Source of the DNA: Nitrospirota bacterium | Lineage (GTDB): Bacteria; Nitrospirota; Thermodesulfovibrionia; Thermodesulfovibrionales; JdFR-86 | Length of the DNA stretch: 64,000 nucleotides | Direction: 5' to 3' | Assembly (NCBI GenBank): GCA_963721805.1 | Contig: CAVRJY010000004.1 | Coordinates: 32,001-96,000, forward strand | Shown here: positions 27,725 through 45,041 of the stretch, one piece after another | How positions within the stretch are numbered: position 1 is the first letter of the stretch | Layout: each line of letters opens with the position of its first letter | The notes under the pieces: generated by a model | Told to the model about the DNA's origin: nothing | The model's input: only the letters and a program-made list of their open reading frames with translations | Databases searched by the model: none | Position numbers and translations under genes: made by a program

Positions 27725-30700
27725 TTAGTTGGCGTCGTAGTCGTAAGTCGCCGGGTTGGCGTAAGTCGTCGTACCGCCGTGACCGGCTGAGGCTGCGCGT
27801 GAGGTCGGTGTTGCGGGACCGTGTGCGCTGCCGCAGTTCGATACGTTGTTGTTCGTGATCGGCGTAGAGTAGCACGAACCCTGATAGGACGTGCCGTTTC
27901 TGTCGACCGCGGTGGTAGCAGTCACGGGGTTCACGCCGCTCCAGCCGCCGCCGTTGAGGAACCTCTTGCCCTGGTTCTTCGAGACGTGGCCGCCCTGGTA
28001 GAGGTTCGGCCTGTTAGCGCCGACCATGACGTAGTTGACGACCTTGGATACGTTACAGGTCGTAACGTTGCCGGTGCTGCTGTCGACCAGCAGGTTGGCG
28101 ACACCGTTGCCGGTGATCTGCAGGGACGCGCCGCTGCAGTTCACAGGGTCGCTGGTGCTGACGACGCCGATGTACTTGCCGGCGAGTGCGTTAGCACCGC
28201 CGCCGAAGTTCTTCGACGGGTCCGTACAGTTGTAGATCTGGTTGCCTGTGCTCGTGTTCTCGCACGCGGAGAAGCCGCTGGCCAAGGCGATGAGGCCCTT
28301 GTCAGCATAACCCGCGCTGCGCGGCTTGCATGACGTGGCAGGAGCGGTAGCCACGCTGAGCTTGGGGGTAGCGCCCGCGGTGCTTGCGCTGACCACGGTG
28401 CTTACGCCGTTACACGTGCCGTTCGTGAACTGGATGACGTCGCCGGCAAACTGGTTCAGCGTCCCGGTGCCCAGCGAGGTCGTGTTACATACGCCGGCTG
28501 CTGCGCTTACGCAGGTACCCGACCCGATCGTAGCCACGCCGGTGTAGTCGCCGGTCGTCGCGTTGATCATGCCGCGAGCGTACAGGTTGAAGGTGACGCC
28601 GTTAGCGGTCGTGCAGGCTGCCTTGGCCGTATCGACGCTCGTGAAGTACACCGTCTGGCCGATGTTGTCGAGTATGACCGGCGACGTCGCATAACAGTTG
28701 TTGTCGGTGTCCTCGTTGAACTTGAAGCTGAAGCCGGCCAGCGAGTGGTCGCCGCCATAAGAGGCAGCTACCGACAGCGTCCCGGTCGAGGTGCAGCTCG
28801 TGTTGTTGAACGCGCCGTTGTCTATACACGTCGGCCTCTCAGCCGCGATCGGGTTGGAGTCGTAACCCGGATCGGAAGGCGTGTTCATCCACGAAGCCGG
28901 CAGCTGGTTCTGGGCGTTGGTGCCGTGCACCGCACCCTCGCGCTCGCCAAGGTGGCACTCCTTGCAGAATATGCCCCAGCCGGCGAACTTGGTGGTCGGC
29001 ACGTAGCAGTGTGCGGTGCCGTACATCGTCGTTGCGCCGTGAGGCTGCCTGGAGAGCTTGTTGTTCCTGGGGCCCCACTTGTAGTCGTACGGGCTGTTGA
29101 AGTCGCCGGTAAGACCGCTGGCCGAGAAGTTCTCGGTCTGGCTCGAGCCCTCGTCCTCGGCGGTGCCGTAGACGTCAGCCCTGTGGCAGTTGTAGCAGAG
29201 GTACTGCGGCAGCATCTCGGTGTCGTCGTTCTCAGCTACCGTCGTGCCTGCTCCGGGCCTCGTGCCGGACTGCACGCCGTACTTGACGATCGTCACGCCG
29301 GGAGCCATCGTGGCGTGCGTGCCGTCAACGTTGATGGTGTCCATGGCCTCGAACCTGAGTTCGGTGTCCGCATCCTTCATGATCCAGCGGTTGTCGGATA
29401 CGTGAGGACCCTGCGGGTCTTCAGGCGATCCGCCGTGGCAGTCCGAGCAGTTGATCTGAGCCCACGGCCCGTACGGCGGGACGAACGTGTCGCCCAGTCC
29501 GGGGGTTACCATGTTGACGGTGCCGTCGGGGATGGCCGAAGCGCCGGTATCCCACGGGTTGCCGTCGGTGGAAGCCGCTTTGAAGGTCGAGTCGTCGATG
29601 ATCTGGGTGATCTGATACCACGTCCCGTCAGACTCCCTGACGTACCAGCCCGGCAGTGCGTTGTTCGGGAGCTTCTGGCCGGTGAGCGTTACAGTGCCGC
29701 CCGATGCGGAGCCGTTCCAGGTGAGGCCGGCGCCGTACCACTGCGGGTTGAGGTTGGCCGCGAAGGTGCCCGCGACCCTGGATATGGTGTTCATACGGCC
29801 TGCGGAGGCATCGCCGAGCTTCGAGCCGTCGGTCGGCAGCGGCTGGTTCTGGCCTACCGCGTAAACCGCGTGGTGGGCCAGGTTGTTCGGGTTGAACTCC
29901 TGTGCTATGTCAGTGCCCTTGCCCTCCCACGTCGCGTTGCCCTTGTTGGGGCCGCCGCTTACGAGGTCGGGAGGCGTGTTGCCGAAGGCGTAGTAGCTGT
30001 GGCACTTCACGCAGACGTCGCGCTGGTTCGTGGCCGCAGCCTTTACGGTGTACGTCGCGGCTGACGGATCAGCGAAGGTGTCGCTCGCGAGGCCGGTAGC
30101 CGCTACGAGGTAGACGTCGCCGGTCGACGGGGCGCAGGTAGCGCTCGTCTTCTGGGCGAAGGCAACGCCGTTAGACAGGTTCCAGTCGATGATCTCGTCG
30201 CGGTTTGCGGTTGCGCACGCGCCGCTCGTCCAGTGGAGCTTGTAGCCGGACCACTGGCTGAAAGCCCAGTCCTTGGTCGGGTCAGAGCAGCCGCTGACGC
30301 CGGTGGAGATGCTCTCCTGAGCCTGGCCGGTGATCATCTCTGCGTCCGTAGGATCCTTGACGGCAGTTGCGCTACAGTTGCCGGATTCCACGACGTTGTT
30401 GTTGACGTCGAGGATCTGGTAGCCGTTGCCGGCTGCGGGCGTGCAGGCGGTAAAGCTCGGCAGCGTGACCGTGGTCGCGTCGCTGTCGAGGATCGGGTAC
30501 TGAGTACCGCCAGCGGTTGCGGTCGCGCCACAAGTGCCGGTGTTGATGATGAGGCTCATGCCCCTGAGGTTCGTCGTGCTGCTGAACGTACCGGTGACGA
30601 CCGTCAGGGCGTTGGCGCCGTTAGTGATGCTCGACGAGGTGCCGGAGTAGTTGAGTGCGACGGTGTCGTTGGACGGTGCGGTCGTCATGGCGGCAGCGGG

Positions 30701-33598
30701 GTTGTACGAAACCGCCACGCCCCATGCGCCGTTCATGCCCGGATCCATCGAACCGTCGAGCTTCCTGACCTCGTACTTCCAGTCAGCGGCGGTGTAGTCG
30801 CCGAGGACCTTGCCCGTGGCCGGAGTAAACGGAAGGCCGAAGGTGTAGACCGTGCCAGAGCTGTCCGTCGTGCTGCCGGTGACCTGGCGGACGTACCTGG
30901 TGTTCTTTACGGTGGCGTCACCCGAGGTGGACTCCATTACGATCAGGTAGCCCTTCCACTGGTCGGCAACCCAGCCGGTAGCGGCCAGCGTCCTGCTGGT
31001 GTCAGTCAGCGAAAGCGAATCGCCTGCAACCGTAACGGCCTCGTGGCGCGGTGCGATCTGCGTGCCGTGGACGTTGTGGCAGTCTGCGCAGGCTACGAAC
31101 CTGGTGCCGGCGGGGTTGACCGCGGCCTCTGCCCTGTCAATCGAGTTGACGATGCGGTTGGTGGCGTACGCGCCGCCGACCGGGTGGCCGGAGGCGTACG
31201 AGCCGAGGCCGTTGTTGCTGGCCGAGGCGTTCAGGAGCGCCGAGACGTCCGGAGCTTCGTTGCCGAGGTAAAGCTCGGTCCCGGTGCTGTGGCATGCTAC
31301 GCAAGCCGAATCGGGAGCCGAATCAGAATCAGTGTTGATCAGCAGCGACTCGTTAGAGGACTGGTGGGGCGAGAACTTGAACGAACCGTTCTGCGCGCCG
31401 ACAGCGCTTGCCTGCTGGTCGTTGTGGCACTTCACGCAGACCGCACCGAAGTACGATCCGTCGGTGAAGCTGCTGCCGACCTTGTACATGTGGACCGCGC
31501 CAACCTGTGTGGCGTTGGTCACTTCGATCGCCGGCAGCGTGTGGCTGTTGCCGACAACTTCGTTCTGGTGGCAGCTGAGGCAGAAGCCGCCGCCGGAGGT
31601 ATTGTAATCAGAGTTCACGAGCGACGACGAATCCACATAAGAGGTCGCGTTCGTGGCGCGCAGGTTGTACGCGTTGCCGTCTCCGCTGCTTGCGTTGTCA
31701 TTGTGCTTCGCGTGACAGTTCAGGCATGAAGTCTCAAACGCGGTGGGGTATGCATCGCTGCTGTACGCAGCCGGTGCGATGTGCCTGTGCGTGCCGGACG
31801 CCATCCTCGTGACGATGTCGGAGTGACAATCGTTACAGGAGGCGCTCTGCGCGGTGGCGCCGCTGCCGTTCCATATCGCGGTGCCGGCCTGGTCGGAACC
31901 TATGCCGGTGCCTGCGTGGCAGGAGACGTTCGAACAGTTCGACGGGCTGCCGGTAGCCGTGAAGGTGACCGGCATCTGGACGCCTGCGGAGTTCGCGAAG
32001 GTGCCGCCAGCCAGTAAGGTCTTGACGCCGTTTACGTGGTTGGCGCCGGCCGCGAGGTCGGCGTCACTTGACGGGTCAGCGACGTTATTGACCGTTGCGG
32101 CGTGGCAGTTGTAGCACTTGATGCCGCTGTTGCTCATAAGGTGAACGGTGTGGGTCTTCGACATCGCTGACGGGTCTGCCTTGTTGCCGTGGCAGCTCGT
32201 GCAGTCGCTGATGGAGCCGGTGAACCAGTCCTTCGGCGCGTAAGCATTAGCCGCGTCGATAGGCGCTGCGTTAGAGTGGCAGTACAGCGTGGTGCAGGTG
32301 TCGTCAGCGCCGCCAGCGGTCATGCCGGCGACGGTGAAGCCATTTGCGTTCCACGTACCGGGGTTGAACTGGCCGGTGCTGAGCTTGGAAGCGGGCATGC
32401 CCGCCGTCGTGCCGTTGAAGTTGACCTCTATGACGTTATCGCCAAAATTGGAGTTCGGCATGCCACCCGTGTGGCACATGTCGCAATTGGCTGAGCCATA
32501 CTTGTCAACGTGCGTTACGTGTGCGCCGGCGCTCGCAGCGCCGGTCGTGTTGGTGGTGCCACCGACGTCCGTATTGACCAGCGATGCGACGTTGGTCGGC
32601 GGTTTGCCGTGGCAGTCGGTACAACCGGCCACGAAGCCGCGAGCGGGATCCTTGTGACAGCCGGTGTTGCCGGTGCCCCAGCAGGTCGCGCTGTCGGAAG
32701 TCGCATGCGCAGCTTCGGTTGCGGCGGTGACTTTAGAAGTATCGTAGTCAGCGCCACTGCCGCCCGGCTGTGCGGCCGCGATCTCGTAGCCTATGTTGTT
32801 GGCTGCGGTCTCGGTGTGGCAAACGACGCAGACTGAGGTCGTCTTGTTACCGGTGGAAACCTCGGAATACGGGCCGGTCTCGTTGAGGAACTTGACGTTC
32901 GCCCAGTTGCCCGATATTACGTCGCCATTAGAGTTGACCACAGGGACGCCCCTGTTGATCTGGGTCCTGACGAGCTTCGTGTCGCTGATCGCGTACGAGT
33001 GGCCTGCGGCGACATAGGGCGACTTGATCCACGTGCCATCGCCTTCAACGTTGATGACGCTGAGGTTGTTCGTGGCGATCCTGTAGAAAGTGCCGGAGTT
33101 CGTCAAAGCGGTGCTCAGGCCGAACTGGATCGTCATGCCGACGAGCGAACCCGAGGCATAAGAACCGCTGACCGTGACGGAATTCGTGCCGGCCCCGTTG
33201 GCGGCCATCGTGCCGTTAAAGAGCGCGGAACCGCCGGAGACGTACGTGCCGTTATACAGCCTGGCCTGCGACATCGAGTGCGGGTCGTGGCAATCGACGC
33301 ACTCCCTCGACCACGATCCGAACCTGTCGGCGGCGTTCGTCGAGGAGTGAGTCACCATCGCATCAGCCGGGCCGCCCGAATAGTGGCACGACGTGCAAAC
33401 CTGGTTAAGAGGCGTATTGTCTATACCGCCATAGCTCGGAGTATTCTGCGCAGTATTATTGTGACATGCCTGGCAGCTTCCGACCATAGAATGCGGCGGG
33501 TCTAGCGCGAGGGCGATCCCGGCAAAGCCGAGCGCTGCGACTAGGGAAAAGACCGTGAGCAGAATCAGCCTTTTCATGTTGAACCGATTTCCCGACAT
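27725..33598 (-). CDS. Giant secreted multiheme cytochrome c (~1957 aa, ~21 heme sites)
   Basis: Signal peptide; hand count of 18 CXXCH, 2 CX4CH (CTTLYCH, CSNVSCH) and 1 CX7CH; S/T/G/A-rich non-heme inserts; GGGGGA RBS before ATG 33598. Confidence 0.93.
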   Translation of the reverse strand: MSGNRFNMKRLILLTVFSLVAALGFAGIALALDPPHSMVGSCQACHNNTAQNTPSYGGIDNTPLNQVCTSCHYSGGPADAMVTHSSTNAADRFGSWSRECVDCHDPHSMSQARLYNGTYVSGGSALFNGTMAANGAGTNSVTVSGSYASGSLVGMTIQFGLSTALTNSGTFYRIATNNLSVINVEGDGTWIKSPYVAAGHSYAISDTKLVRTQINRGVPVVNSNGDVISGNWANVKFLNETGPYSEVSTGNKTTSVCVVCHTETAANNIGYEIAAAQPGGSGADYDTSKVTAATEAAHATSDSATCWGTGNTGCHKDPARGFVAGCTDCHGKPPTNVASLVNTDVGGTTNTTGAASAGAHVTHVDKYGSANCDMCHTGGMPNSNFGDNVIEVNFNGTTAGMPASKLSTGQFNPGTWNANGFTVAGMTAGGADDTCTTLYCHSNAAPIDAANAYAPKDWFTGSISDCTSCHGNKADPSAMSKTHTVHLMSNSGIKCYNCHAATVNNVADPSSDADLAAGANHVNGVKTLLAGGTFANSAGVQMPVTFTATGSPSNCSNVSCHAGTGIGSDQAGTAIWNGSGATAQSASCNDCHSDIVTRMASGTHRHIAPAAYSSDAYPTAFETSCLNCHAKHNDNASSGDGNAYNLRATNATSYVDSSSLVNSDYNTSGGGFCLSCHQNEVVGNSHTLPAIEVTNATQVGAVHMYKVGSSFTDGSYFGAVCVKCHNDQQASAVGAQNGSFKFSPHQSSNESLLINTDSDSAPDSACVACHSTGTELYLGNEAPDVSALLNASASNNGLGSYASGHPVGGAYATNRIVNSIDRAEAAVNPAGTRFVACADCHNVHGTQIAPRHEAVTVAGDSLSLTDTSRTLAATGWVADQWKGYLIVMESTSGDATVKNTRYVRQVTGSTTDSSGTVYTFGLPFTPATGKVLGDYTAADWKYEVRKLDGSMDPGMNGAWGVAVSYNPAAAMTTAPSNDTVALNYSGTSSSITNGANALTVVTGTFSSTTNLRGMSLIINTGTCGATATAGGTQYPILDSDATTVTLPSFTACTPAAGNGYQILDVNNNVVESGNCSATAVKDPTDAEMITGQAQESISTGVSGCSDPTKDWAFSQWSGYKLHWTSGACATANRDEIIDWNLSNGVAFAQKTSATCAPSTGDVYLVAATGLASDTFADPSAATYTVKAAATNQRDVCVKCHSYYAFGNTPPDLVSGGPNKGNATWEGKGTDIAQEFNPNNLAHHAVYAVGQNQPLPTDGSKLGDASAGRMNTISRVAGTFAANLNPQWYGAGLTWNGSASGGTVTLTGQKLPNNALPGWYVRESDGTWYQITQIIDDSTFKAASTDGNPWDTGASAIPDGTVNMVTPGLGDTFVPPYGPWAQINCSDCHGGSPEDPQGPHVSDNRWIMKDADTELRFEAMDTINVDGTHATMAPGVTIVKYGVQSGTRPGAGTTVAENDDTEMLPQYLCYNCHRADVYGTAEDEGSSQTENFSASGLTGDFNSPYDYKWGPRNNKLSRQPHGATTMYGTAHCYVPTTKFAGWGIFCKECHLGEREGAVHGTNAQNQLPASWMNTPSDPGYDSNPIAAERPTCIDNGAFNNTSCTSTGTLSVAASYGGDHSLAGFSFKFNEDTDNNCYATSPVILDNIGQTVYFTSVDTAKAACTTANGVTFNLYARGMINATTGDYTGVATIGSGTCVSAAAGVCNTTSLGTGTLNQFAGDVIQFTNGTCNGVSTVVSASTAGATPKLSVATAPATSCKPRSAGYADKGLIALASGFSACENTSTGNQIYNCTDPSKNFGGGANALAGKYIGVVSTSDPVNCSGASLQITGNGVANLLVDSSTGNVTTCNVSKVVNYVMVGANRPNLYQGGHVSKNQGKRFLNGGGWSGVNPVTATTAVDRNGTSYQGSCYSTPITNNNVSNCGSAHGPATPTSRAASAGHGGTTTYANPATYDYDAN

Positions 33599-33615
33599 GA
33601 TCCAGTATCCCCCTT

Positions 33616-36360
33616 TCACTGTGCTACCACCTTCCCAATGGACACTCTGGTTCCATCAATTTTCTTCTCGGCCTTGCTGCCGAACGGCTTGAAGGACTTC
33701 AGCGACTTGCCGCTGTTGCCCTTGATCTGAAGTATCGTGACCTTGGCGTTTGCGGTCGTGTTAGGCTGGCCGATCACTACCTCGGCCTTCGCGTCGCCGT
33801 TTACGTCGCCGGCCGCTATCGAGACGTTCTTGCCCTTTGCTGCGTTGTTGCCGGAGCTGACCGTGAAGTGGTGCTTCACGACGTTGTCCGACGTAAGCAT
33901 CTGAATCAGGGCCGAGTTCTTGTGGGTGCTCGGCACGGTCGAGGCTATGATGAGAGGCATGCCGAGGCCGTCCACGTCGCCGACTGCGAGCTGAACGCCG
34001 TCAACGGTCGGGCCGAGGTCGACTGCATCGGAGCTGGAAACCGTCCATGAGCCGGGGCCACCTGACGTATCGACCCAGCTGATTATCGCCTCAGGCGTTG
34101 TGTTAGCTCCGGACGCGCATGCGGTGATGATCTCGGGGATGCCGTCGCCGTCAACGTCGCCGGCCGCTACCGAGGTGCCGGCGGTGCCACAGCCGCTATC
34201 GTAAGTGCCATCGAACTGGTTGACATACGTATCGCTGCCGCTAGAGGTCGGCGAATAAACTGCGTACTCGCCCGAACCGTCAGGCGCATCGCCAAGGACG
34301 ATATCGGAGAGGCCGTCCAGGTCGAAGTCCGCAGTGGCTACCGAGCCGGTATTGCCGCTGAACGCCGCGATGTAGGTGTCGAAGTCAGCCATACCGGTGT
34401 CTTTGTATGCGTTGGTCCCGTCGCCGTCCACGTTGGCCACGATCAGGTCCGCAGTCAAGTCAGGATTGCTCGTGTTCATGATGCCGGCCGAGGTAGTATA
34501 GCCGGTGGTCGTGTCGCCTACGCAGTAGTCAACCACTGCGTATGCGGCCTGCTGTATGCCCTTCGCGCTGAAGGCCTTGATCGTCTGGGTGGCTGCGCAC
34601 GGGCCGACGCCCTCGCTGACGATGATCTGGTTGGTCTGCTTCATGCTCTGGTACGTGCCGTTTACGCTGAGCGCGCCGCCGTCAGCCAGCGTCTGGGTGA
34701 CCGGGGCGGGCGTCTTGTAGCCCTTGACCGCGTTAAAGGCTACGGTGTAGGTGCCGGCGCCGACCGTAAAGGACTTGCTGCCGGAGCCCGTCATCGTGCC
34801 GTTAGGGCCGGTGATGGTGTAGCTGGCGCCCGCGACGTTGGTAGTTACGTTGATCGCCGCGCCGACCACAACGGTCAGCTTGACGGGTACGACGACCGTA
34901 TCGGCGCTGCAGCCTGCCGCTATGGTGATGTTCGCGGTGTAGATGCCGGTGGCCATGCCGGCCGAGTTAGCCGATACGTTCATGGTGCCGCTGGTGGTAC
35001 CGCTGGCGGGCGAGATCTGTACCCAGCCCTGGTCAGCCGTGGCGGTCCATGATGCGTCGGTGCCGAGCGTGAGGGTCAGGGGTGCGGTCGTGCTCGATAC
35101 GCTGTTGGCGCCGAGGTTGATCGCCTTGGGCGATGCGCTGATCCCTACCGAGGAGGCTACGTTAACCGTGACGGCCACCCTTACGGAGGCGCCGGGGCCG
35201 CTGACGGTGATGTGGCCGGTGTGGCTGCCGGCGGTGAGGCCGGTGGTGTTAAGCGAAACGCCGACGCTGTCGGTGCCGGAGCCGTTGATCGAGCCTGAGG
35301 TTGCGTCCGGCACGATCCAGGCTGAATCGGAAGAGAGGGTCCATGCGAGGGAGCCGCTTCCGTTGTTCGCTATATAAAGGTTCTGAGAGCCGGTGCTCGA
35401 GCTGCAGCCTACGCTGCTGAAATCGAGTGCGGCGGGCGTCACGTTAAGAGCGGTGTAGGCGTCGACGCCAAGGACTGCGACCGCGCCGGGCTCCGCTACG
35501 AGGAGCCTTCCGTCAGTCCCGATAGCCATGCCGTCGGCCTGTCCGTTCTGGGTGATCGCCGCGAGGTCGAACCTGCCGAGGTATGCGCCGGTGGCGTCAT
35601 AAACCTGGAGCTCGCCGCCTGAAGCATCACTTACGTAGATCCTGCCCTGTCCGTCGACCGCTGCGCCGCCGGGGGCGCTCACTACCGCTGCGCCGGAATC
35701 AAGCGGGCCGTTTGAGAAGAGAGTCGCCTTAAGCGAGCCGTCGCTTGCGAAGACCTGCCCCCTGGAGCCGAGGGTGGCGCCGTCGCCGAGGACCACCGAG
35801 GGCCTGTCGAGCACGACGACGTCGCCGGTGGCGGAGACCGCAACCGCTGCGGGCGCACTTACCGACGTGATGCTCATCAGCAGCGCCTTGCTGTTGATGT
35901 CGTATATCCTGACCGCGTTAGCGGCGGAATCGGCCACGTACACCTTCGCCGCATCAACGGCTATGGATGATACGGACTTCAGGCCGCTGCCGAGCGCGAC
36001 AGAGGTTCCGAGGTTTGCGTCATAGACCTTTACAGCGCCGGTAGCGACGCCGCTCGTGCCGCTTGAGAGGCCTACATATACCTTACCGCTTGCGTCAACT
36101 GCCACCGCAAACGGAGTAAGGCTCCTGTCAGGGACCATTCTCTTGATGAAATTACCCTGATACCCGAACACGTCGACGGACTTGTTATACCAGTCCGCGA
36201 CATATGCGTTGCCGCTGGATGCCACGGCAACGTCAGCGGCCTTGAAATTCTGGCCGTTTGACATCGTCCCCAGACTGGAGATCTGAGGTAGCGAAGCAGC
36301 CATTGCCGCGCTCGCAAACAGCATGATGAGACCGAAGACCAGCAAGACCTTAAATTTCAT
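33616..36360 (-). CDS. Secreted NHL beta-propeller + BACON-like Ig domains + FG-GAP repeat protein
   Basis: Signal peptide; NHL blades (VAVDASGKVYV, GRIYVSD); WTLSSDSAWI / WTATADQGWV; GDVDGDGIPEII, GDVNGDAKAEVV. Confidence 0.85.
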   Translation of the reverse strand: MKFKVLLVFGLIMLFASAAMAASLPQISSLGTMSNGQNFKAADVAVASSGNAYVADWYNKSVDVFGYQGNFIKRMVPDRSLTPFAVAVDASGKVYVGLSSGTSGVATGAVKVYDANLGTSVALGSGLKSVSSIAVDAAKVYVADSAANAVRIYDINSKALLMSITSVSAPAAVAVSATGDVVVLDRPSVVLGDGATLGSRGQVFASDGSLKATLFSNGPLDSGAAVVSAPGGAAVDGQGRIYVSDASGGELQVYDATGAYLGRFDLAAITQNGQADGMAIGTDGRLLVAEPGAVAVLGVDAYTALNVTPAALDFSSVGCSSSTGSQNLYIANNGSGSLAWTLSSDSAWIVPDATSGSINGSGTDSVGVSLNTTGLTAGSHTGHITVSGPGASVRVAVTVNVASSVGISASPKAINLGANSVSSTTAPLTLTLGTDASWTATADQGWVQISPASGTTSGTMNVSANSAGMATGIYTANITIAAGCSADTVVVPVKLTVVVGAAINVTTNVAGASYTITGPNGTMTGSGSKSFTVGAGTYTVAFNAVKGYKTPAPVTQTLADGGALSVNGTYQSMKQTNQIIVSEGVGPCAATQTIKAFSAKGIQQAAYAVVDYCVGDTTTGYTTSAGIMNTSNPDLTADLIVANVDGDGTNAYKDTGMADFDTYIAAFSGNTGSVATADFDLDGLSDIVLGDAPDGSGEYAVYSPTSSGSDTYVNQFDGTYDSGCGTAGTSVAAGDVDGDGIPEIITACASGANTTPEAIISWVDTSGGPGSWTVSSSDAVDLGPTVDGVQLAVGDVDGLGMPLIIASTVPSTHKNSALIQMLTSDNVVKHHFTVSSGNNAAKGKNVSIAAGDVNGDAKAEVVIGQPNTTANAKVTILQIKGNSGKSLKSFKPFGSKAEKKIDGTRVSIGKVVAQ

Positions 36361-36603: not shown

Positions 36604-37533
36604 CTACTTTATATGACACGCGGTGCAGAGGGCGCTGTCGTTATTGCTCGTGACCAGGAACGGGAAGGTCCCCACTGTCTTGTCGCCCTGATTGTGCACG
36701 TCGTGACAGGTCTCGCACTCTAGGCTCGTCCCCTCGCCGCCCGCGGGACTGTAAAACAGCCTGATGCCGACGCCCTCGGGAAGAGACGTGTCATTTGGCG
36801 AGTTGAAATAGCAGAACTTTGCGCCGGAAGCGCAGCCCCCCGCGGCCGAATGGAATTCACCGGGGTACTTGGCCGTCATGGTCGCGGTGAAATCTATGCT
36901 GATCGGATGGTCGTTGCTGAGATCGACCTTCTGGTTGTCGTTGCCGCCGGAGTAGTTGTACCTGTCGCCTATGTCCGGGTTGATCACCGCGGCGCCATAC
37001 GCCTGGCTGCCGATCGTCGTCACCGTGGTGGTGCCCATCGGATCGAGAGTCGGTCCGCCGGCCTCTTCAGCGTCAAGCGGTTTGGTAACGAGACTGTTCA
37101 GAGCCCCGACGCCGTCATGGCAGCTCAGGCAGAGCAGGGAATACATCCTGACTTCGCCGGAACCGGCCTGATACGTAGGAGAGGTATACAGCACATAGTT
37201 AGTTGCGTTGGACAGCTGCCTGTTCCACAGCAGCATGCTGCCGCCGCCACCGGTTAGACTGTTGCCGATCGAGGTGATCGTATTGAGGTTGCCTCCCTCG
37301 CCCCCGCTATTCTGAATATAGCTGAGCGGACCAACATTCGTGTTCGCGCCGTGCGGCGTGTGACAGAAGACGCAGACTTCTACTGTGTCGTACGAATTTT
37401 TCTGCCCATCGAAGCTCAAATCGTGCAGCGATCCAACGACTCCTCCGAGTGCTATCACGCTCGATAGCGTCAAAACACTCACCCCTACCAATACTGCCGT
37501 GATGATTTTGCTGACTTTTCTTTTGACTTTCAT
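36604..37533 (-). CDS. OmcE-like tetraheme cytochrome c (candidate nanowire subunit)
   Basis: HDLS, VCVFCHTPH, LLWNR, CLSCHDG, DLSNDHP, LECETCH, FL...LCTACH, in the order recalled for Geobacter OmcE; GGAGGTGA RBS. Confidence 0.85.
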   Translation of the reverse strand: MKVKRKVSKIITAVLVGVSVLTLSSVIALGGVVGSLHDLSFDGQKNSYDTVEVCVFCHTPHGANTNVGPLSYIQNSGGEGGNLNTITSIGNSLTGGGGSMLLWNRQLSNATNYVLYTSPTYQAGSGEVRMYSLLCLSCHDGVGALNSLVTKPLDAEEAGGPTLDPMGTTTVTTIGSQAYGAAVINPDIGDRYNYSGGNDNQKVDLSNDHPISIDFTATMTAKYPGEFHSAAGGCASGAKFCYFNSPNDTSLPEGVGIRLFYSPAGGEGTSLECETCHDVHNQGDKTVGTFPFLVTSNNDSALCTACHIK

Positions 37534-37579: not shown

Positions 37580-37591
37580 AGCTTTTCATGC

Positions 37592-38704
37592 TCACGGCCA
37601 TTCCTTCTTATCAACGCCGCCCCTCCAGTGTTCCGCGCCGTGGCAGTTCAGGTAGCACTTGGGCCATCCGGTGCCGTAGGATGGGAAATAAAACGGCCCC
37701 GAGCTGTTCGTAGACGGCCTGACTATGGTTGAGTTGAACGCTATCAGGTTGTCGTACCTCTGGGTGCCATGCGAGGCGTGGCAGGTAAAGCACGAGGTCT
37801 GTTTGGCTACTATATGATAGCTATGCCGCTTGAAGCTCTTGTCGCTGAGGATCGAGGTGCGCTGGTGGCACATATAGCAAAGCTCGTATGCGCGTTCGGT
37901 CTCGGGCCCGTCGTCGGTCCTGTATGGCGCGACCAGCAGCGGGGCGGAGCCGGACCCGTGTGGCCCCTGGGGGCCGTACCTGTCGTCATTGCCGTGGCAG
38001 TCAGTGCATGTGACGGTAGACGTCGGCCTCAAAGTTGGGATGAGGCTCGGCACGTCGCCGTTTTTCCCGACGGCCTCCACCGGGTGGTATGAGGCGTTAT
38101 CCGGGTTGAAATCCACCGCGATATTTCGCGTAGTGGAAGGCAGGTTGGCGCTGTCGGAATGGCAATTATAGCAAAGCTCATATTCATATGAGGCCCTCTT
38201 CAGCCGGAGCCCCTGCGGTTCGCTCCCCCTGCCCATCCCGCGCTTATCCGGCCTGTACCCCGAGACTCCCGCAAGCGGCGAGGCCTCGCTCGAGACATGC
38301 ACAACATGGCAGTCCACGCACGTCACATGCCTCGGGGCCATCGTGGAGTCCTCGGGCAGCACCTCGTCCATGCGGTGGAACCGGGACGTCTCCAATATAG
38401 GATGGTGGGAGGGCTTGATCAGCGTGCTTTTTATGTCCGCCTTGGCCTTGCCCTTCGGGCCGTGGCAGCCCAGGCAGACCTTGCCCCATGACGCGCGGAG
38501 CATCGGGGTGCCGCGCTTTCCAACCCCTGCATGGCAGCCGGCGCACCCGGCCGGGTTCACCCGCTTGTCCATATGGGACAGCAACATCGTGGTATGGGTC
38601 TTGCGCACCGCGCGCTGCAGGATCGGAGCCCTGGCCGCCGCGCCGCCAGCGGACAGCGCCGAGAGGGCGAGGAAGGCCAGGGCCGGGACAACGGCCCAGC
38701 GCAT
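37592..38704 (-). CDS. Octaheme cytochrome c
   Basis: Signal peptide; CAGCH, CLGCH, CVDCH, CYNCH, CTDCH, CYMCH, CFTCH plus CYLNCH (CX3CH). Confidence 0.9.
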   Translation of the reverse strand: MRWAVVPALAFLALSALSAGGAAARAPILQRAVRKTHTTMLLSHMDKRVNPAGCAGCHAGVGKRGTPMLRASWGKVCLGCHGPKGKAKADIKSTLIKPSHHPILETSRFHRMDEVLPEDSTMAPRHVTCVDCHVVHVSSEASPLAGVSGYRPDKRGMGRGSEPQGLRLKRASYEYELCYNCHSDSANLPSTTRNIAVDFNPDNASYHPVEAVGKNGDVPSLIPTLRPTSTVTCTDCHGNDDRYGPQGPHGSGSAPLLVAPYRTDDGPETERAYELCYMCHQRTSILSDKSFKRHSYHIVAKQTSCFTCHASHGTQRYDNLIAFNSTIVRPSTNSSGPFYFPSYGTGWPKCYLNCHGAEHWRGGVDKKEWP

Positions 38705-38727
38705 ACATTTATTATAGAGCCCCTCTC

Positions 38728-39650
38728 TCATGGGCATGGCTTGTGGCAGGCGTCGCACAGCTGGTCGAACCCGATCACGAGGAATTTGTAGCCCTCGACC
38801 TGAGGGTCGGTGGTATCGGTCCACAAATGCGGGTCGTGGCAGGTGGAGCACTGAACGCCATAATAATATCCGGGAGCATAGCCGGGGAAAGCCCCGGGGC
38901 CGTCGACGTCGTTGACCATTACGCCGGGGCTCCCGTCATACAGGAAGTTGGTAGGCCGCAGGTACACGTGGCTCGCCTGAGAGTTGACCATGCTCAGGTC
39001 AAACGGGTAGCGCACCATCGTAGTCTGCCCGCCCACGGCGCAGTTGGCGAGGCTGTCGGCAATGAGCCTTGAGTTCATCGGGATCGAGACGACGTGCTTG
39101 TTGGTCAGGTCGGTGCCTATGTATGAGGGGCACGTGGCCTTGATCCTGCCGGTGGAATCTATGCAGTCGTCGGCGTTCATCTTTATAGGGCCCGTTGACT
39201 GCTCTGAGGCGCTTACGCTTACTATGTCGCCTACGGCCAGCGTCCCGTCATGGCAGCTCAGGCACATGCGCGAGGTCCCGTCCGGGTGGCTCGGGGGGTC
39301 CGAAAGCAGGGTGCCATACCCGGCATTGCTAATGGTCCCCTTCGGCAATACAGTGTACTGCGCGTCCGAAAGCCTGTGGTTCCAAAGCGGGCCGTTGACG
39401 AGCACGGTATTCGTGATGGCTGTGTGGGGCGTATGGCAGAATATGCATATCTGGGTCTCGGATTGCGCCCTGACCCCGGATGAGTTCGCGGATAGGTTAT
39501 GCGGGTTATTGTATGCGGTGACGTTGCCGACTCCCATAAGGACGGCCTCGGCGTCCCGGTTCATAACGACCAATGCCGCAACTATGAGGATGCCGGCCAG
39601 CAGCATGACGGCGGCCATAATGCCGGCGCTTTTTTCTCAGCCAGTTTCAT
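38728..39650 (-). CDS. Second OmcE-like tetraheme cytochrome c (true start probably 39650 with a 1-nt deletion in an A6 run; open frame starts 39618)
   Basis: HNLS, ICIFCHTPH, PLWNH, CLSCHDG, DLTNKH, CSTCH, CDACH; GGAGGTGA RBS precedes ATG 39650. Confidence 0.83.
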
Positions 39651-39653
39651 ACC

Positions 39654-40721
39654 CTAATCACCTCCGAGGAAACGAAAGGCCTGTATGCGCCTGTTGAATG
39701 AATCCACCACGAACAGGCGGTCGGTGCGGTCCATAAAAAGCCCTGTCGGGATCATGAATTCCCCGTACCCGGCGCCAGGTTTGCCGAAATACAGCAGGAG
39801 CCCGCCCTGCTGGTCATATATTTTAACCATGTCCTGGGCGGTGTCGGCGACGTATATATGTCCTTCCCTGTCGACCGCGATGCCCTTTATCTTGTCAAAG
39901 GTCTCGGCCGTATCGCCCTGAAGCCCGAAGGCCCTGATAAACCGTCCGTCAGGCCCGAAGATCTGCACCCGGAAGTTCAGCGTGTCCGAGACGTAGAGCC
40001 TGCCCTCGCCGTCGACGGCAATATGGGTTGGGTAGTTCAGTTTGCCATCGTCCTCTCCGCGCCCGCCCACGCTGCCGGTGCGGGTACCGTCAAGCGAATA
40101 CTTGTAGATCGTGTGCGCCCATGTATCGGCCACGTACAATACCCCCCGGGGGATGTCGATGGCAAGGCCGGTGGGGCGCTCGAAGGGGCCCCGGATGATG
40201 CGCTGGAACTTGCCTTTGCCGTTGAATACGAAGAGCCCCTGCAAGTCCGCATCCGTGACGTAGATGCTGCCGTCCGGGCCGGATGCGACCCCGATTGGGT
40301 ACATCAGGGCCAGACCGTTTGCGTCGGTTATGTTGAAGGAATCCATCTTTTTGAGGTCCACGACGCAGACTCGGTGCGCGCCCGGGTCGGTCACGTAGAG
40401 CCTGTCTTTATCGTCCACAAAGACCCCGTGCGGCCGCACAAGCGTCTCGGGCGCCACGGGCATCTCCTCGAACTGGGGGTCGTCCTGAAAACCGCCCACC
40501 AGGGCCTCAGTGGCCGCGCCGTGCTCTGCGCCAGAGATGCGGCTCAGGCTCCAGAGGTACATTATGCGCGGCTTCTGCCCTCCTCCCGGCCACACGATCC
40601 CGCCCGAGAGGGTATTGTCCAGCGCTGCTTTTGGCGTTGCGCACGAGGCCAGAGTCCCGATGCACAGCACCGCCGCGGCAACGGCCCTGCAGAGGGTGCT
40701 CATTCGTTCTCCCGCTCTCAA
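39654..40721 (-). CDS. NHL-repeat six-bladed beta-propeller lipoprotein
   Basis: Lipobox LAS-C; six P.G.A.D..G..YV.D repeats. Confidence 0.9.
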   Translation of the reverse strand: MRAGERMSTLCRAVAAAVLCIGTLASCATPKAALDNTLSGGIVWPGGGQKPRIMYLWSLSRISGAEHGAATEALVGGFQDDPQFEEMPVAPETLVRPHGVFVDDKDRLYVTDPGAHRVCVVDLKKMDSFNITDANGLALMYPIGVASGPDGSIYVTDADLQGLFVFNGKGKFQRIIRGPFERPTGLAIDIPRGVLYVADTWAHTIYKYSLDGTRTGSVGGRGEDDGKLNYPTHIAVDGEGRLYVSDTLNFRVQIFGPDGRFIRAFGLQGDTAETFDKIKGIAVDREGHIYVADTAQDMVKIYDQQGGLLLYFGKPGAGYGEFMIPTGLFMDRTDRLFVVDSFNRRIQAFRFLGGD

Positions 40722-41689
40722 TACTCCTCGATTACAGCCTTGTCCCTGAGCCTCTTCAGTGTGGACTCCCTGAGTTCCTTCTGCCTGTCGGCCTCCATGC
40801 GCGCCTTGATGCCGGCGGCTACTTCGTCCAGAGTAAGCTGAGCGGGTTCGATGATCTCCTCGACGCGGACGATATGAAAGCCGTATATCGTGCGTACAAG
40901 GGGGCTGATTTCGCCGGCCTTCAGAGCGAAGGCCACCTTCTCGAGGTCGGGGTCGAGGCGGCCCTTGTGCACAATGCCGAGCTCGCCGCCCTTGACCCTG
41001 TAAGGGTCGTCGGAGTAGTCCCAGGCCAGTTGCCCGAAGTCTCCGCCCTTCTTCAGTTTGGCGAGGACCTCCTCGGCCCGCTTCTTCCGGAGCGCGACCT
41101 CCCCGGCCGAAAGCGACGGGTCGACCGCGATGAGGATATTGCTCATCCTGCGCGACTCAGGCCGTTTATAGGCAGCGCGGTGAGACTCATATTCGGCCTT
41201 CACCTCGGCGTCCGTCACCGCGGACTTGGCCTTGAACTCCTGCGCCTCGAAGGCCTCAACCGTAAGCCTGCGGCGGAGGTTCTCGACATATTGATCCCTG
41301 GTTAGCCCGGCGGCGCTAAGGGACCCGAAATAGCTCTTCATGCTCCGCACACGGTCGATCGTCTTTTGTTCGGCCGTGTCTACCGCGCCAAGTTCGGGAT
41401 GGATGCCGAGCCTCCGGGCTTCCTCATAAAGCAGCTCTGACTCTATAAGCATATCGATCGCCTTGGGACGGTACGCGGCCAGGGTCTCTTCGGAGACCGT
41501 CCCATGGAATGAAGCCGCCGGCAGCAGCTGGTTCATGGCCTCGCTGAGCTGAAACTGGTTGAATACGACGCCGTTGACCTTAAGGACCGGTTTCGAAGCG
41601 GATGCCCCGAATGCAACAGGCGCCCATAAAGCGGCAAATACCATCGCCGCGGCCCATATTACGGAAACCCTGAGTGAGAACACCTTCAT
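40718..41689 (-). CDS. Parvulin-type peptidyl-prolyl isomerase foldase (SurA/PrsA-like)
   Basis: Signal peptide; SNILI, DFGQLA..YSDD...KGGELG, GEISPLVRTIYGFHI. Confidence 0.92.
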   Translation of the reverse strand: MKVFSLRVSVIWAAAMVFAALWAPVAFGASASKPVLKVNGVVFNQFQLSEAMNQLLPAASFHGTVSEETLAAYRPKAIDMLIESELLYEEARRLGIHPELGAVDTAEQKTIDRVRSMKSYFGSLSAAGLTRDQYVENLRRRLTVEAFEAQEFKAKSAVTDAEVKAEYESHRAAYKRPESRRMSNILIAVDPSLSAGEVALRKKRAEEVLAKLKKGGDFGQLAWDYSDDPYRVKGGELGIVHKGRLDPDLEKVAFALKAGEISPLVRTIYGFHIVRVEEIIEPAQLTLDEVAAGIKARMEADRQKELRESTLKRLRDKAVIEEY

Positions 41690-41786
41690 GCGACTCCCCT
41701 TTCGGTTAAGAAAATTAATACAAGCTTTATTATCACATAAATGGCGGCCCGTTTTGAACGCCGCCGCTCATTGACCTGCCGCGGGC

Positions 41787-44389
41787 CTACCGCGCAAACG
41801 TCATGCCGAAGGTTCTCCGCACCTTCAGTGCAAACTCATGCTGCATAACATTGCCGAAATCCATCATATTGGTGTAAGAGGCCGAGAGGGTGAACCTCCG
41901 GTACTTCCAGTCGTAGATGATGGCCGTGTCAGCGAAGAGCCCGGCGTTATTTTCGACCTTCCGGATAGTTTGCGTAAGCGTCAGGGTGCTCTCGTTCGAG
42001 ATGTGATAAGACGCATCGCTTTGGACGTCCAGCTCGCTAGGCATGGTGTCGCTGCCTGTGTAAGAAAGGGAACTCTGGACCTGGAGCTTCATGGAGGGGT
42101 TCCAGTGGAGCCCCGCGATGACGTAAGTCGTCTTTTGTATCGCGGCACCTGAGCTTTCGACGGGCATGTCCAGATAATAGTTTGCCGTCACATCCAACTT
42201 GAGGGAGTAGTCCGGCATGTAAAGCGCGTATGCGGAATAATGATGCCTTATGCTCCAGTCCTTGGCGCTGACGGAGCTGTATTGTGGGTCGGACGGGAAC
42301 GGATAGACCGTCTGCGCGTCGTAGGCCAGCCTCAGGTTCACCCTCTCGGAGCCGAGCAGCGTAGCGGCTGCGCTGAAGGTGGCGGGGAAGCCGTCGACGT
42401 CGTAGCCGGCGTCGAATCCCATATCGAACTGTATCCGCCTGGTCATGTAAGTGAATTTCCCGATTATGTCCTCGGCAAGGTTATAAGTGAAACCGTTGTT
42501 CCTTAGTGACGTATTAGCGCCGACATTCGAAGTGTAGTTGACGCTTGAGGTGATGATGCCGCTGCCGCCGTCGATACCGGCGACCCTGCCATTGTAGTAG
42601 ACATCTGCCCTGGTCTCCGAAATGATATAAGGGGTCAGGCGAAGGCGCTTGACCACGCCGTTGTCTCCCTCCAGGCCCAGGCCGAATGAATATTCCAGCT
42701 CGTTATATTTGTGGCCCGGCGTGTCGGAATAGGCGTATCCGACCATCCCCTCGGCGTAGTATGCAAGCAGATACTTAAGCGGGCTCGTATAAAGCAGATC
42801 GGAGTACGTGAGATATGAGTCGTTGTTCTGTTGGGAGTGGACCCTCAGTATATTAGTGAAGTCCGTCTCGCTGGAGCTCTTCTGGGCGAGGTTCCCCCAC
42901 TGCTGGTGCGTGTCGAGCTGGGCGTCGGAATAACGTGTTTCATTGGTGCCATATACGTTATTGTAGTAGTTATAATAGAAGTTCCACCAAGTCCTGAACG
43001 TGGGCTGCCCCGGGGTTATTTCAGTCGGGTCAACCGATATCATTCGCAGAGACGCCTGCTCAGCCGAGTAGTTGCCATCTTTGAAGTTGGTAAAATTTGT
43101 CTGCGAATCGTAGTAATCGAAATAGATCAACGGGAACTTGAATCCGAATAGTTCCTTGCCGCTTTGGAATCGCTCCGCCCAACTCGGTCCGGAGTTACTC
43201 CTCCAGTTCCAAAAACTGTTGCCGTTTCCGTTACCATTTCCGTTGCCATTTCCGTTACCATTTCCGTTGCCGTTTCCGTTGCCATTTCCGTTGCCGTTGC
43301 CGTTGCCGTTTCCGTTGCCATTTCCGTTGCCGTTTCCATTGCCGTTTCCATTACGATTCCAGCTCCAAGCACCGCTCCCGTTTCCATTTCCATTTCCGTT
43401 GCCATTTCCATTCCGTTACCATTTCCATTCCCGTTTCCATTTCCATTCCCGTTTCCATTTCCATTCCGTTCCATTTCCATTCCCGTTACCATTTCCATTC
43501 CCGTTACCATTTCCATTCCCGTTACCATTTCCATTCCCGTTACCATTTCCATTCCCGTTACCATTTCCATTCCCGTTACCATTTCCATTCCCGTTGCCAT
43601 TTCCATTCCCGTTACCATTTCCATTCCCGTTACCATTTCCATTCCCGTTACCATTTCCATTCCCGTTACCATTTCCATTGCCGTTTCCATTCCGTTGCCG
43701 TTACCATTCCCGTTGCCGTTGCCGTTGCCAGTCTCGATTCTATTCAAGCGCCTGTATTTAAGCCTGTATCTGTTTTGTGCGGAATCTTCTTTCTGTGTAC
43801 CGTCGTCGTAATAAACTATATTGCCGTAGCCGAAAAACCTGATAAATCCAGGTCTTGAATAAAAGAGGCTGAGAGCGATATATTGGTCTGTATAGTCTTG
43901 CCCCCTGCCGTATTCATATATCAGTTCGATAGGCTGGGGAAGATACTGCCAGAGTTTCAGCCCTCTGCTGGTGTTGATGTCGTTTAGGAAACTCAGGTCA
44001 AGGCCGATCCTGCCGTCCCATTGCGATGCCGTTGTCGCAGAGCTAAAATAACCGGTGCGGCTGAAGTTGTCGTACTTCGTCATGACCTTGAAGACCATAA
44101 GCCTCGGGTCCACGACGTAGCCGGTATATGTCAGCTTGTATATCTGGTCGAATTCGTGGCCCGGTCCGAGGTCCCCGAATGCGGAATAGAAATCTTCCTC
44201 CACCGAGAAATCCAGAGTGTATCTCCTCTGGTGCCTCCAGCCCTCATCGAGGTAGCTTAAGGCCTCGGCCCTCTCCGGCAGCAGTGCGAAAGCCAGGGTA
44301 ATGCCAAGCAGCATAAGGGCGCAAAGGGCTCCCAAGGCCCCCGTGCGTGGCTTAAATCGCTTCATCCCTGTCATGCCGCGGATGGTCAT
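41787..44389 (-). CDS. Putative outer-membrane beta-barrel protein with an internal (Gly-Asn)n tract, frameshifted within the repeat
   Basis: Signal peptide; YVVDPRL; Tyr-rich amphipathic strands; ends LKVRRTF...; the GN frame runs directly into the 41787-43130 ORF. Confidence 0.75.
43218..43729 (-). repeat. Gly-Asn coding tandem repeat (6-bp GGNAAY units; 18-bp GGAAATGGTAACGGGAAT core)
   Basis: About 512 bp of ccatt/ccgtt units, interrupted once by SGAWSWNR. Confidence 0.95.
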
Positions 44390-44397
44390 CGCCCTGT

Positions 44398-44745
44398 TCA
44401 GTTCCGCCTGTCCGCGCCTATGGCGTGCACCGCGCCGCCCTTGACCGCGACGCCCCTGCGCCGGCCTTTAAGCGGCACGGCCAGGCCGCTGAGCTCCAGC
44501 ACCCTGACGTCGCGCTTTATGGTCGCCACCGAACTGAAAAGAAGGCTCGAGAGGTCATCGTACCCAAGCAGATGGCCCTGACGCTCGGCCTCGGTAGCGA
44601 GCCTGTGAACCCGCTGCCTCCTGAGCGCCGATAGCCCCTCGTCACGCAGCACCTCGTCGTCGCCCTGCCCGACGAGCGTGAGCCTGAGCTTGACGGCCAG
44701 CCCGCCTTTGTTGTCCACGTAGTATTCGACCTTGCCGTAGTCCAT
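44398..44745 (-). CDS. DUF1670-like small HTH protein
   Basis: RLATEAERQGHLLGYDDLSSLLFSSVATIKRD. Confidence 0.7.
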   Translation of the reverse strand: MDYGKVEYYVDNKGGLAVKLRLTLVGQGDDEVLRDEGLSALRRQRVHRLATEAERQGHLLGYDDLSSLLFSSVATIKRDVRVLELSGLAVPLKGRRRGVAVKGGAVHAIGADRRN

Positions 44746-44753
44746 CGCCAGTG

Positions 44754-45041
44754 CTACTCCTCTCCTTCAACCTGCCTGGGCGTACCGATCAGCATGCCGC
44801 TGCGCCTCAGGTAGTTCATATCGCGCTTAAGCGTGGCCTTCGAGGTCAGCATTATCATCCCGAGGTCGCGGTAGCTGAGCTTGGCACCCTGCCATATGGC
44901 CTCCTCGATGATCCTGCCGAGCCTCTTGCGCCTCGTCTCCGCCACCCCGGCCCCGTGGTCCTCTTCGCTCAATACCGTGAGCCGAAGTGTCTTCAGGCTG
45001 TTCTTGCCGTCTTGCACCCAATACGTCAGCGTACCGCTCAT
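44754..45041 (-). CDS. DUF1670-like small HTH protein, paralogue of the neighbour
   Basis: RIIEEAIWQGAKLSYRDLGMIMLTSKATLKRD; GGAGGG RBS. Confidence 0.7.
   Translation of the reverse strand: MSGTLTYWVQDGKNSLKTLRLTVLSEEDHGAGVAETRRKRLGRIIEEAIWQGAKLSYRDLGMIMLTSKATLKRDMNYLRRSGMLIGTPRQVEGEE

Follow-up and report, generated by a model that had tools for sequence, protein, structure and literature searches.

Within a 64,000-nucleotide stretch of a Nitrospirota genome (contig CAVRJY010000004.1 of assembly GCA_963721805.1, positions 32,001 to 96,000; hereafter the window), ten co-oriented genes on the minus strand run head to tail from 45041 to 27725 (Table 1). They encode two small DUF1670-family proteins, a sizeable beta-barrel of the outer membrane, a SurA-like peptidyl-prolyl isomerase (PPIase), an NHL propeller lipoprotein, a tetraheme cytochrome (OmcE1), an octaheme, a second tetraheme (OmcE2), an NHL/BACON/FG-GAP protein and a giant cytochrome. 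We consider the locus to be, probably, an omcE-type extracellular cytochrome ('nanowire') and electron-transfer operon of a dsrAB-carrying member of the Nitrospirota, with a core homologous to the clusters of Geobacter and Desulfuromonas.

A ten-gene multiheme cytochrome operon

Neighbouring genes overlap by 4 nt at the closest and lie 243 nt apart at the widest, inspection by eye gave signal peptides on all structural proteins, and the terminator, which starts 25 nt past the final stop codon of the operon, is the sole strong one on the minus strand within 27600-45400. The coordinates and the terminator scan bear out an initial annotation, made from the sequence alone, which had described ten co-oriented genes ending at a strong terminator. 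All the genes that it listed are present, with the qualification that the barrel is not a single open frame as assembled; the other nine genes are open. Its count of about 37 heme sites, some 21 of them in the giant, needs a small correction, since the operon holds 36 motifs (4+8+4+20) and the giant 20, and the description of a many-heme cluster stands.

Table 1. Features of the operon and of its flank past the terminator (window coordinates; aa, amino acids; ORF, open reading frame; GT, glycosyltransferase; TPR, tetratricopeptide repeat).
Feature	Coordinates	Strand	Size and basis
DUF1670-family small protein a, probable helix-turn-helix (HTH) regulator	44754..45041	-	95 aa; Pfam PF07900 E 6.8e-8, 32.6 bits
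DUF1670-family small protein b	44398..44745	-	115 aa; Pfam PF07900 E 6.4e-12, 45.7 bits
Large outer-membrane beta-barrel gene	41787..44389	-	interrupted: N-terminal ORF 43127-44389, C-terminal ORF 41787-43130
(Gly-Asn)n coding tandem repeat	43218..43730	-	513 nt; 18-nt unit, ~27 copies (Tandem Repeats Finder)
Periplasmic SurA-like parvulin PPIase	40718..41689	-	323 aa; signal peptide; Pfam Rotamase_3 E 7.5e-23, SurA_N_3 E 2.1e-11
NHL six-bladed beta-propeller lipoprotein	39654..40721	-	Pfam NHL E 2e-32; lipobox L-A-S-C by eye
OmcE1, OmcE-family tetraheme	38728..39618	-	296 aa; 4 CxxCH + 4 family-conserved extra His
Octaheme cytochrome	37592..38704	-	7 CxxCH + 1 CxxxCH; Pfam Paired_CXXCH_1 E 2.5e-18
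OmcE2, OmcE-family tetraheme	36604..37533	-	309 aa; 4 CxxCH; longest ORF extends to 37614
Secreted NHL propeller / BACON x2 / FG-GAP protein, adhesin-like	33616..36360	-	914 aa; BACON_2 E 4.6e-17, NHL E 1.3e-12, FG-GAP E 1.5e-8
Giant cytochrome	27725..33619	-	1964 aa; 18 CxxCH + 2 CxxxxCH = 20 motifs; Pfam Cytochrome_C7, GSu_C4xC__C2xCH
Intrinsic terminator	27700..27671	-	13-bp stem, 9 GC pairs, loop of 4, T run
Three polytopic membrane proteins, probably glycosylation	21602..27521	-	Pfam and hydropathy
TPR-tailed polytopic protein	25740-27521	-	593 aa
GT39/PMT_2 protein	23859-25079	-	
YfhO-like protein	21602-23845	-	11 hydrophobic segments
Sugar-modification genes: PTPS_related membrane protein, RGP-like, GT2, NAD epimerase	14672..21567	+	Pfam; minus-strand DUF362 gene in between

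We compared the window with its own genome (G000; 2.78 Mb in 9 contigs, 94% complete) and 40 relatives, 41 genomes together, and surveyed 78 OmcE loci (L numbers) from many phyla, many of them on short contigs. An HMMER-based search found a match to OmcE2 in 23 of the 41 genomes. The order of two DUF1670 genes, barrel, PPIase, NHL, octaheme, OmcE2, NHL/BACON and giant is kept in three relatives of the same family (G001, G004 and G005), and G013, which belongs to another family, shows it without the last two genes. A Nitrospirae metagenome-assembled genome (MAG; L019) matches the window in all ten genes and in their order, and a Nitrospiraceae MAG (L068) keeps the order from barrel to giant. 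Because the order recurs in the loci of relatives and in L019, we conclude that the arrangement is not due to chance. Barrel, octaheme and NHL genes recur together across the OmcE loci; the Geomonas locus L061 reads NHL-barrel-NHL-OmcE-octaheme-OmcE, and the core order barrel-NHL-OmcE-octaheme-OmcE is common to it and the window. NHL proteins are co-located in 70 of the 78 loci, octahemes in 49 and PPIases in 20. The nearest named record among the matches listed is L016, 'Nitrospirae bacterium JdFR-86', of the phylum Nitrospirota, and the nearest named loci are Nitrospirae/Nitrospirota MAGs, in agreement with the earlier suspicion that the host is not a Geobacter. The host genome contains 36 ORFs with at least three CxxCH motifs.

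Two tetrahemes of the OmcE family

Sequence searches matched both tetrahemes to the two OmcE filament proteins with solved structures, that of G. sulfurreducens (7TFS) and that of D. soudanensis WTL (9YUQ), the latter being the second such structure (Petersen et al., 2026, mBio; PMC13712944; this and the other papers given by PMC number are cited from excerpts). The E-values were 2.8e-10 and 4e-6 respectively for OmcE1, and 2.3e-14 and 3.8e-14 for OmcE2, while a family profile (A2) of 58 homologues, OmcE1 and OmcE2 included, matched the two structures over its full length at 6.7e-65 and 3.6e-56. The four CxxCH motifs and four further His (H37, H61, H209 and H280 in OmcE2 numbering) do not vary among 11 close sequences. 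Across the alignment of 58 sequences the four CxxCH together with H61, H209 and H280 remain invariant and the N-terminal H37 is present in at least 90%, the same pattern that is described for the OmcE family in the excerpts of PMC13712944. By sequence homology, then, both proteins are members of the OmcE family, and the two OmcE-like tetrahemes of the initial annotation are confirmed. This pattern speaks for family membership and not for polymerisation, because a monomeric bis-His tetraheme also needs eight His for its four hemes.

An AlphaFold2 model of OmcE2, built with no hemes, had a mean predicted local distance difference test score (pLDDT) of 60.6, with two long insertions below 50. A Foldseek search of this model against the PDB returned 7TFS as its sole match (E 8.5e-6, template modelling (TM) score 0.44 by query and 0.64 by target), and the expected OmcE fold is thereby recovered for OmcE2, in a heme-free model of that confidence. 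OmcE2 is approximately 25-30% identical to the solved filament proteins, from which it also differs by the two long insertions. A prediction with two copies of OmcE2 (residues 29-309) and four hemes, in which half of the heme sites stay empty, reached scores of 0.01 and 0.07, the mark being 0.42, and carries no weight either way. We regard OmcE2 as likely to be the major subunit.

The two tetrahemes share 27-28% identity, and in a quick tree search with SH-aLRT (Shimodaira-Hasegawa-like approximate likelihood ratio test) support only, OmcE2 is grouped with four relatives and a Thermodesulfovibrionales MAG in a clade of six rows (support 97), whereas OmcE1 pairs with the copy of G001 (support 99) elsewhere in the tree. 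Given these separate positions and the low identity, we take OmcE1 and OmcE2 to be old paralogues and not the product of a recent duplication. OmcE2 has an orthologue in all four relatives compared, OmcE1 a counterpart in G001 only. Multiple copies are common, with two or three OmcE paralogues in seven of the scanned OmcE loci.

Further OmcE-like proteins came to light in these comparisons. The host genome encodes a third OmcE-like tetraheme (264 aa, 26.5% identical to OmcE2) at G000:C1:606706-608361, directly 3' of a Cytochrom_C_asm (CcsA-like) gene; it is absent from the matches of the HMMER-based genome search. A third OmcE type, shorter at 238-304 aa, is encoded in relatives (L010:3709-4431, L012:2471-3196, L013:12007-12921 and L014:6010-6726), where it lies a few kb upstream of the DUF1670 genes and on the other strand. 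Its copies form their own clade (SH-aLRT 98); the window has type II secretion system (T2SS) genes in this place. OmcE-like ORFs of similar length with extra hemes occur in other phyla, with five CxxCH in L031, L032, L037 and L039 and seven in L045, and fit the '5-heme OmcE-like' family described in the excerpts of PMC13712944.

The barrel, its repeat and the other partners

The barrel has no match in Pfam or NCBIfam. All four relatives encode it as a single ORF (685-772 aa) in which the N-domain, an Asn/Gly-rich linker and the C-domain recur. A family hidden Markov model (HMM) was iterated until it converged, with every ORF of at least 200 aa in the 78 OmcE loci as the search set. It picked out a single member in each of 46 loci, a Geomonas locus included; these are 522-863 aa long, apart from a piece of 332 aa. 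A candidate in L052 entered at an intermediate round, dropped out at the final one and is not counted among the 46. The iterated HMM was needed, as tblastn alone placed the N part in two and the C part in one of the 78 loci, all of them from Nitrospirae. An AlphaFold2 model of the L016 orthologue (pLDDT 73.5) is all-beta with approximately 31 strands, of which some 8 precede a disordered linker (residues 193-262) and some 23 follow it. Foldseek matched this model to large outer-membrane barrels only (the FimD and PapC ushers, LptD, MtrB and TonB-dependent receptors; TM scores low, 0.2-0.45), and the protein is, by its modelled fold class, a large outer-membrane barrel.

The Gly-Asn insert, for which the initial annotation had called the protein a GN-barrel, is found in six of the 46 barrel family members outside the window, five of them in Nitrospirota-type loci and one in a MAG labelled Deltaproteobacteria. 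There it spans 45-78 residues, and the tract of approximately 170 codons in the window is the longest seen. The protein is thus the large barrel of the described omcE system with a lineage-specific flexible insert.

Three-frame translation and reading of the sequence place the frame breaks at three points within the repeat (near 43690, 43472-43461 and 43411), across which the Gly-Asn phase shifts between reading frames and returns. Should the barrel be truly out of frame, as a pseudogene or a population-variable repeat, the cluster would be inactive or switchable and its machinery unassembled in the sequenced population. Such a reading could draw on the four bases missing at the three places, all of them inside the (GN)n repeat, and on the length of the tract relative to that in relatives, which suggests an unstable repeat. 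We hold it to be very unlikely, however, since the other nine genes are open, slippage of a repeat unit of 6 or 18 nt would preserve the frame, every break is a one-base shortening of an A-run as consensus errors would give, similar breaks occur elsewhere in the genome, and the barrel gene is intact in relatives. The breaks are most likely consensus or assembly errors, a conclusion that we draw from a second split gene in the window (mfd), from a multiheme gene in six pieces elsewhere in the genome, and from the setting in a 500-nt repeat, where short-read polishing would presumably fail.

The mfd gene (transcription-repair coupling factor) consists of two overlapping plus-strand ORFs at 6782-9923 (6782-7750, 322 aa, and 7707-9923, 738 aa). 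In relatives it is one frame of 1042 aa (G005) or 1060 aa (G001), with a matching frame of 917 aa in G004, and the split in the window reflects either an assembly frameshift or a broken gene. The multiheme gene at C1:1335767-1338731 appears as six short heme-rich ORFs that resemble one large frameshifted gene. The public sequencing runs listed for the stretch comprise one DNA run, sharing 0.16 of its words, and no RNA run; the DNA run yielded 11 short low-depth contig pieces, none of which crosses a frame break and several of which stem from other GN-like repeats.

The start of the octaheme was set at MRWAVV (its longest ORF extends to 38851), and its motif count is identical in all four relatives. 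The unusual CxxxCH, C-Y-L-N-C-H in the window, is kept in the orthologues of L009, L011, L013 and L014. The octaheme has no match among PDB sequences at E <= 0.01. Against the DmsE/MtrA decaheme family (TIGR03508) it scores 44.2 bits, far from the cut-off of 192.2, and with 8 hemes and not 10 it is not a member.

These two proteins bear on a reading without a filament, in which the locus would be a porin-cytochrome conduit. The barrel would sheathe the octaheme as MtrB sheathes MtrA, and the tetrahemes and the giant would be cell-bound proteins of the surface or periplasm that move electrons over nanometres only. MtrB (6R2Q_B) is indeed among the Foldseek matches of the barrel (TM 0.38/0.40), the octaheme has weak matches to the DmsE/MtrA family and to MtrC domains, barrel, octaheme and NHL protein recur together, and the eight-His pattern fits monomer and polymer alike. 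Yet the ushers and LptD match the barrel as well as MtrB does, the octaheme falls short of the DmsE cut-off by the score just given, and the tetrahemes share full-length homology with two proteins whose solved structures are filaments. Moreover, the locus has a large beta-barrel and a beta-propeller lipoprotein near its omcE genes, the combination by which nanowire-capable omcE genes are recognised in the excerpts of PMC13712944. A conduit of this kind therefore seems to us unlikely.

Both DUF1670 proteins score above the PF07900 gathering cut-off of 25 bits, with matches that cover only positions 62-144 of the 220 in the profile, and protein a has a weak match to HTH_DeoR (E 0.0015). The pair stands at the head of the cluster in all four relatives and, besides relatives, DUF1670 is co-located in three of the 78 OmcE loci.

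At the other end of the operon, the NHL/BACON/FG-GAP protein has a signal peptide and no Cys lipobox. The giant bears 16 of its heme motifs in the first 850 residues and four in the last 1100, which are heme-poor, contain Cys and are rich in Ala, Gly, Thr, Ser and Asn. It has no match among PDB sequences at E <= 0.01, and the best scores of a protein atlas search with its C-terminal 1105 residues (0.81 and 0.76) are too low to be useful. A second copy of the NHL/BACON/FG-GAP gene lies at G000:C2:454262-456976 (60% identical), directly followed by a paralogue of the giant at G000:C2:456979-463017 (56-60% identical; a 2014-aa ORF with 18 CxxCH). From this second copy (G000:C2:454262-463017) we conclude that propeller and giant form a separable, duplicated module. 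Other NHL propeller genes of the host also adjoin multiheme cytochromes, at G000:C1:1335091-1338731 and at G000:C3:9175-13442, the latter encoding proteins of 704 aa (29 CxxCH) and 344 aa (13 CxxCH).

Proposed working, comparison with described systems and flanking genes

The omcE-type reading starts from what was observed, that is, the family membership of the tetrahemes, the fold class of the barrel and the conserved gene order, and it extends by homology to polymerisation, cellular location and the direction of electron flow, which we infer. The two DUF1670/HTH proteins would regulate the operon. The structural proteins would be exported by the Sec pathway and receive their hemes from maturation genes encoded elsewhere in the genome, with the PPIase and the NHL lipoprotein acting as folding or assembly helpers in the periplasm or at the outer membrane. 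The barrel, of some 30 strands, could serve as outer-membrane pore or anchor, to which the octaheme would feed electrons from the periplasm. OmcE2, perhaps together with OmcE1, would polymerise outside the cell into an insulated heme wire in which, on the pattern of 7TFS and 9YUQ, the neighbouring subunit provides a His ligand to one heme of each subunit. The helical rise of OmcE is about 34 A (PMC12954529). The NHL/BACON/FG-GAP protein and the 20-heme giant may be a separable surface module that contacts a mineral or a partner cell, and the GT-C/GT39 enzymes past the terminator may glycosylate the exported proteins.

Several points weigh against this reading. Eight His per four hemes are expected equally of a monomeric bis-His tetraheme, and OmcE-like tetrahemes are very common, with at least 550 confirmed stretches in species-representative genomes. 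The model of OmcE2 is of low confidence, as is to be expected when a mostly-coil heme protein is modelled in the absence of its hemes. The barrel gene is broken as assembled, four bases being missing over its three breaks, each from an A-run. Homologues of the giant and of the BACON/FG-GAP protein occur in just 13 and 12 of the 78 OmcE loci, mostly at low scores, and homology to the partners in Desulfuromonadia is weak or absent. As far as the excerpts of PMC13712944 go, OmcE filaments have been solved from just two organisms, with similar bundles in a third, and the physiological need for OmcE/OmcS filaments is disputed even in Geobacter (PMC11077965, PMC13194489, in the parts cited).

The closest described counterparts are the omcE clusters of Geobacter and Desulfuromonas. 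According to the excerpts of Petersen et al. (2026; PMC13712944), a minimal omcE cluster consists of a barrel, two beta-propeller lipoproteins, OmcE and two further multiheme cytochromes, many clusters continue with 15-70 genes, which encode GT2/4/39 glycosyltransferases, sugar-modification functions, TPR proteins and regulators, and homologues occur in five phyla, the Nitrospirota included. The locus has the barrel, OmcE, two further multiheme cytochromes (the octaheme and the 20-heme giant) and two propellers, one of them with a lipobox. The extended glycosylating pattern recurs as well, in the form of GT39 (PMT_2/PMT), GT2, epimerase, RGP and TPR-tailed proteins at 11594-27521, with no GT4 gene seen among the glycosylation-type genes of that interval. 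The likeness to the Geobacter/Desulfuromonas clusters hence takes in an OmcE tetraheme with four CxxCH and four distal His, the large barrel, a propeller lipoprotein, two more multiheme cytochromes and adjoining GT39, GT2, TPR and sugar genes. The differences are the host phylum, the presence of two old OmcE paralogues in one operon, the added SurA-like PPIase and two DUF1670 genes, a barrel with an Asn-Gly insert, a second propeller that lacks a lipobox and is joined to BACON and FG-GAP domains, and a terminal cytochrome of 1964 aa and 20 hemes.

The initial annotation had called the system complete and self-contained, with extra parts that it could match to no described system. The barrel, propeller and PPIase partners that it listed are indeed present. 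The system is not self-contained, in that cytochrome maturation genes lie outside the window (all five Cytochrom_C_asm matches of the host genome do), GT39/GT-C, GT2 and TPR genes lie past the terminator, and the pair of propeller and giant is duplicated on another contig. Nor are the extra parts unmatched, given a barrel family found in 46 of the 78 OmcE loci, Geomonas included, and a published minimal cluster with two multihemes and two propellers. The locus therefore extends a known omcE-type system to the Nitrospirota and is not a new kind of system; its novelty is largely removed by the 2026 report of such clusters in five phyla including this one, as given in the excerpts of PMC13712944. 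We found no described omcE cluster of Thermodesulfovibrionales or Nitrospirota in the literature beyond the phylum's single mention in those excerpts, and the figures or supplements of that paper may show one.

Three other systems resemble the locus in part. The osc (OmcS companion) operon of G. sulfurreducens is described with a folding helper (OscH), secretion helpers (OscE, OscF and OscG) and a porin-like mounting model (excerpts of PMC13194489 and PMC13712944). The likeness is one of description only, a filament cytochrome gene with folding and secretion helpers, whereas the osc subunit is the hexaheme OmcS, which is unrelated in sequence to OmcE. The osc helpers reportedly comprise a prolyl isomerase (OscH), propellers and a porin, in work said to have been published by Shen et al. 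in Cell Chem Biol in 2025. MtrCAB conduits share an outer-membrane barrel, a periplasmic multiheme and surface cytochromes, with MtrB among the structural matches of our barrel, but the octaheme lies below the DmsE/MtrA cut-off, the barrel has approximately 31 strands and not 26, and Mtr systems have no OmcE-family subunits. In sulfate reducers that partner anaerobic methanotrophic archaea (ANME; SEEP-SRB), operons that combine large multiheme cytochromes with a PPIase and a beta-propeller are proposed to serve interspecies electron transfer (excerpts of PMC12246660, citing Skennerton 2017). The combination of a very large multiheme cytochrome, PPIase and beta-propeller is again alike by description only; the proteins there have 26 and 16 hemes, and the excerpts describe no OmcE-type tetraheme.

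The last comparison is relevant to the direction of electron flow. Instead of disposing of electrons onto Fe(III) or an electrode, the same wire and giant might draw them in from an archaeal or bacterial partner, or from a mineral in reduced form, for sulfate or sulfite reduction. The host genome encodes a dsrA that exceeds its family cut-off, next to a second dsr-like frame, operons of like composition occur in the sulfate-reducing partners of methanotrophic archaea (PMC12246660), and cell-to-cell roles for OmcE bundles have been proposed (PMC13712944), both as far as the excerpts go. On the other side, the sequence gives no direction of electron flow. Moreover, dsrAB is also found in sulfur oxidisers and disproportionators. 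We regard this opposite use as a possibility, on balance a doubtful one.

In a more specific elaboration of the omcE-type reading, the two old OmcE paralogues would not be redundant. OmcE2 would be the major wire subunit and OmcE1 a minor starter, anchor or cap, or else a heteropolymer partner; the duplicated BACON/FG-GAP and 20-heme module would dock at the end of the wire, contact a mineral or partner cell and let a sulfate-reducing member of the Nitrospirota exchange electrons with its surroundings, with the Asn-Gly tract as a flexible tether of variable length. Taken as a whole this scheme is quite unlikely to hold. If it were true, OmcE1 would be a candidate for the in-cluster anchor or tip that, according to the excerpts of PMC13712944, is missing from the omcE operons of Desulfuromonadia.

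A syntenic OmcE wire cluster outside the Desulfuromonadia, in a lineage that carries dsrAB, would support the view of a widespread and modular machinery. Its two subunit paralogues, added PPIase, barrel with flexible insert and separable pair of giant and adhesin-like protein would offer natural variants for testing the roles of the helpers. No new class of system is opened by the locus, and its lineage-specific additions are worth noting.

Past the terminator lie three membrane proteins that are probably concerned with glycosylation, and beyond them the sugar-modification genes (Table 1). By analogy with the published clusters, the membrane proteins may be functionally linked to the operon, and a link of the sugar-modification genes to it is suggested on the same grounds. 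The products of 11594-13963 (+) and 25740-27521 (-) combine an N-terminal polytopic part of 6-7 hydrophobic segments with C-terminal TPR repeats, a design which we take to be reminiscent of GT-C glycosyltransferases. The 593-aa protein has paralogues 52-53% identical to it at G000:C1:152097-155494.

On the opposite side, and divergent from the operon, a block of type II secretion and type IV pilus genes occupies 45435-62088 (+). It includes two T2SSE/T2SSF pairs, T2SSK, a PilT-like ATPase and a PilS-like kinase with a sigma-54 regulator, with a flagellin gene at 61225-62088. A functional link between the operon and the secretion/pilus genes (45435-61061) was considered and is treated as unsupported, five proteins of the T2SS region being unmatched near the cluster in the four relatives or the 78 loci. 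At the far end of the window, a 107-aa ORF at 130-453 (+) matches the C-terminal part only of the phage integrase family (E 3.7e-13, profile positions 91-168 of 172) and may be an integrase remnant.

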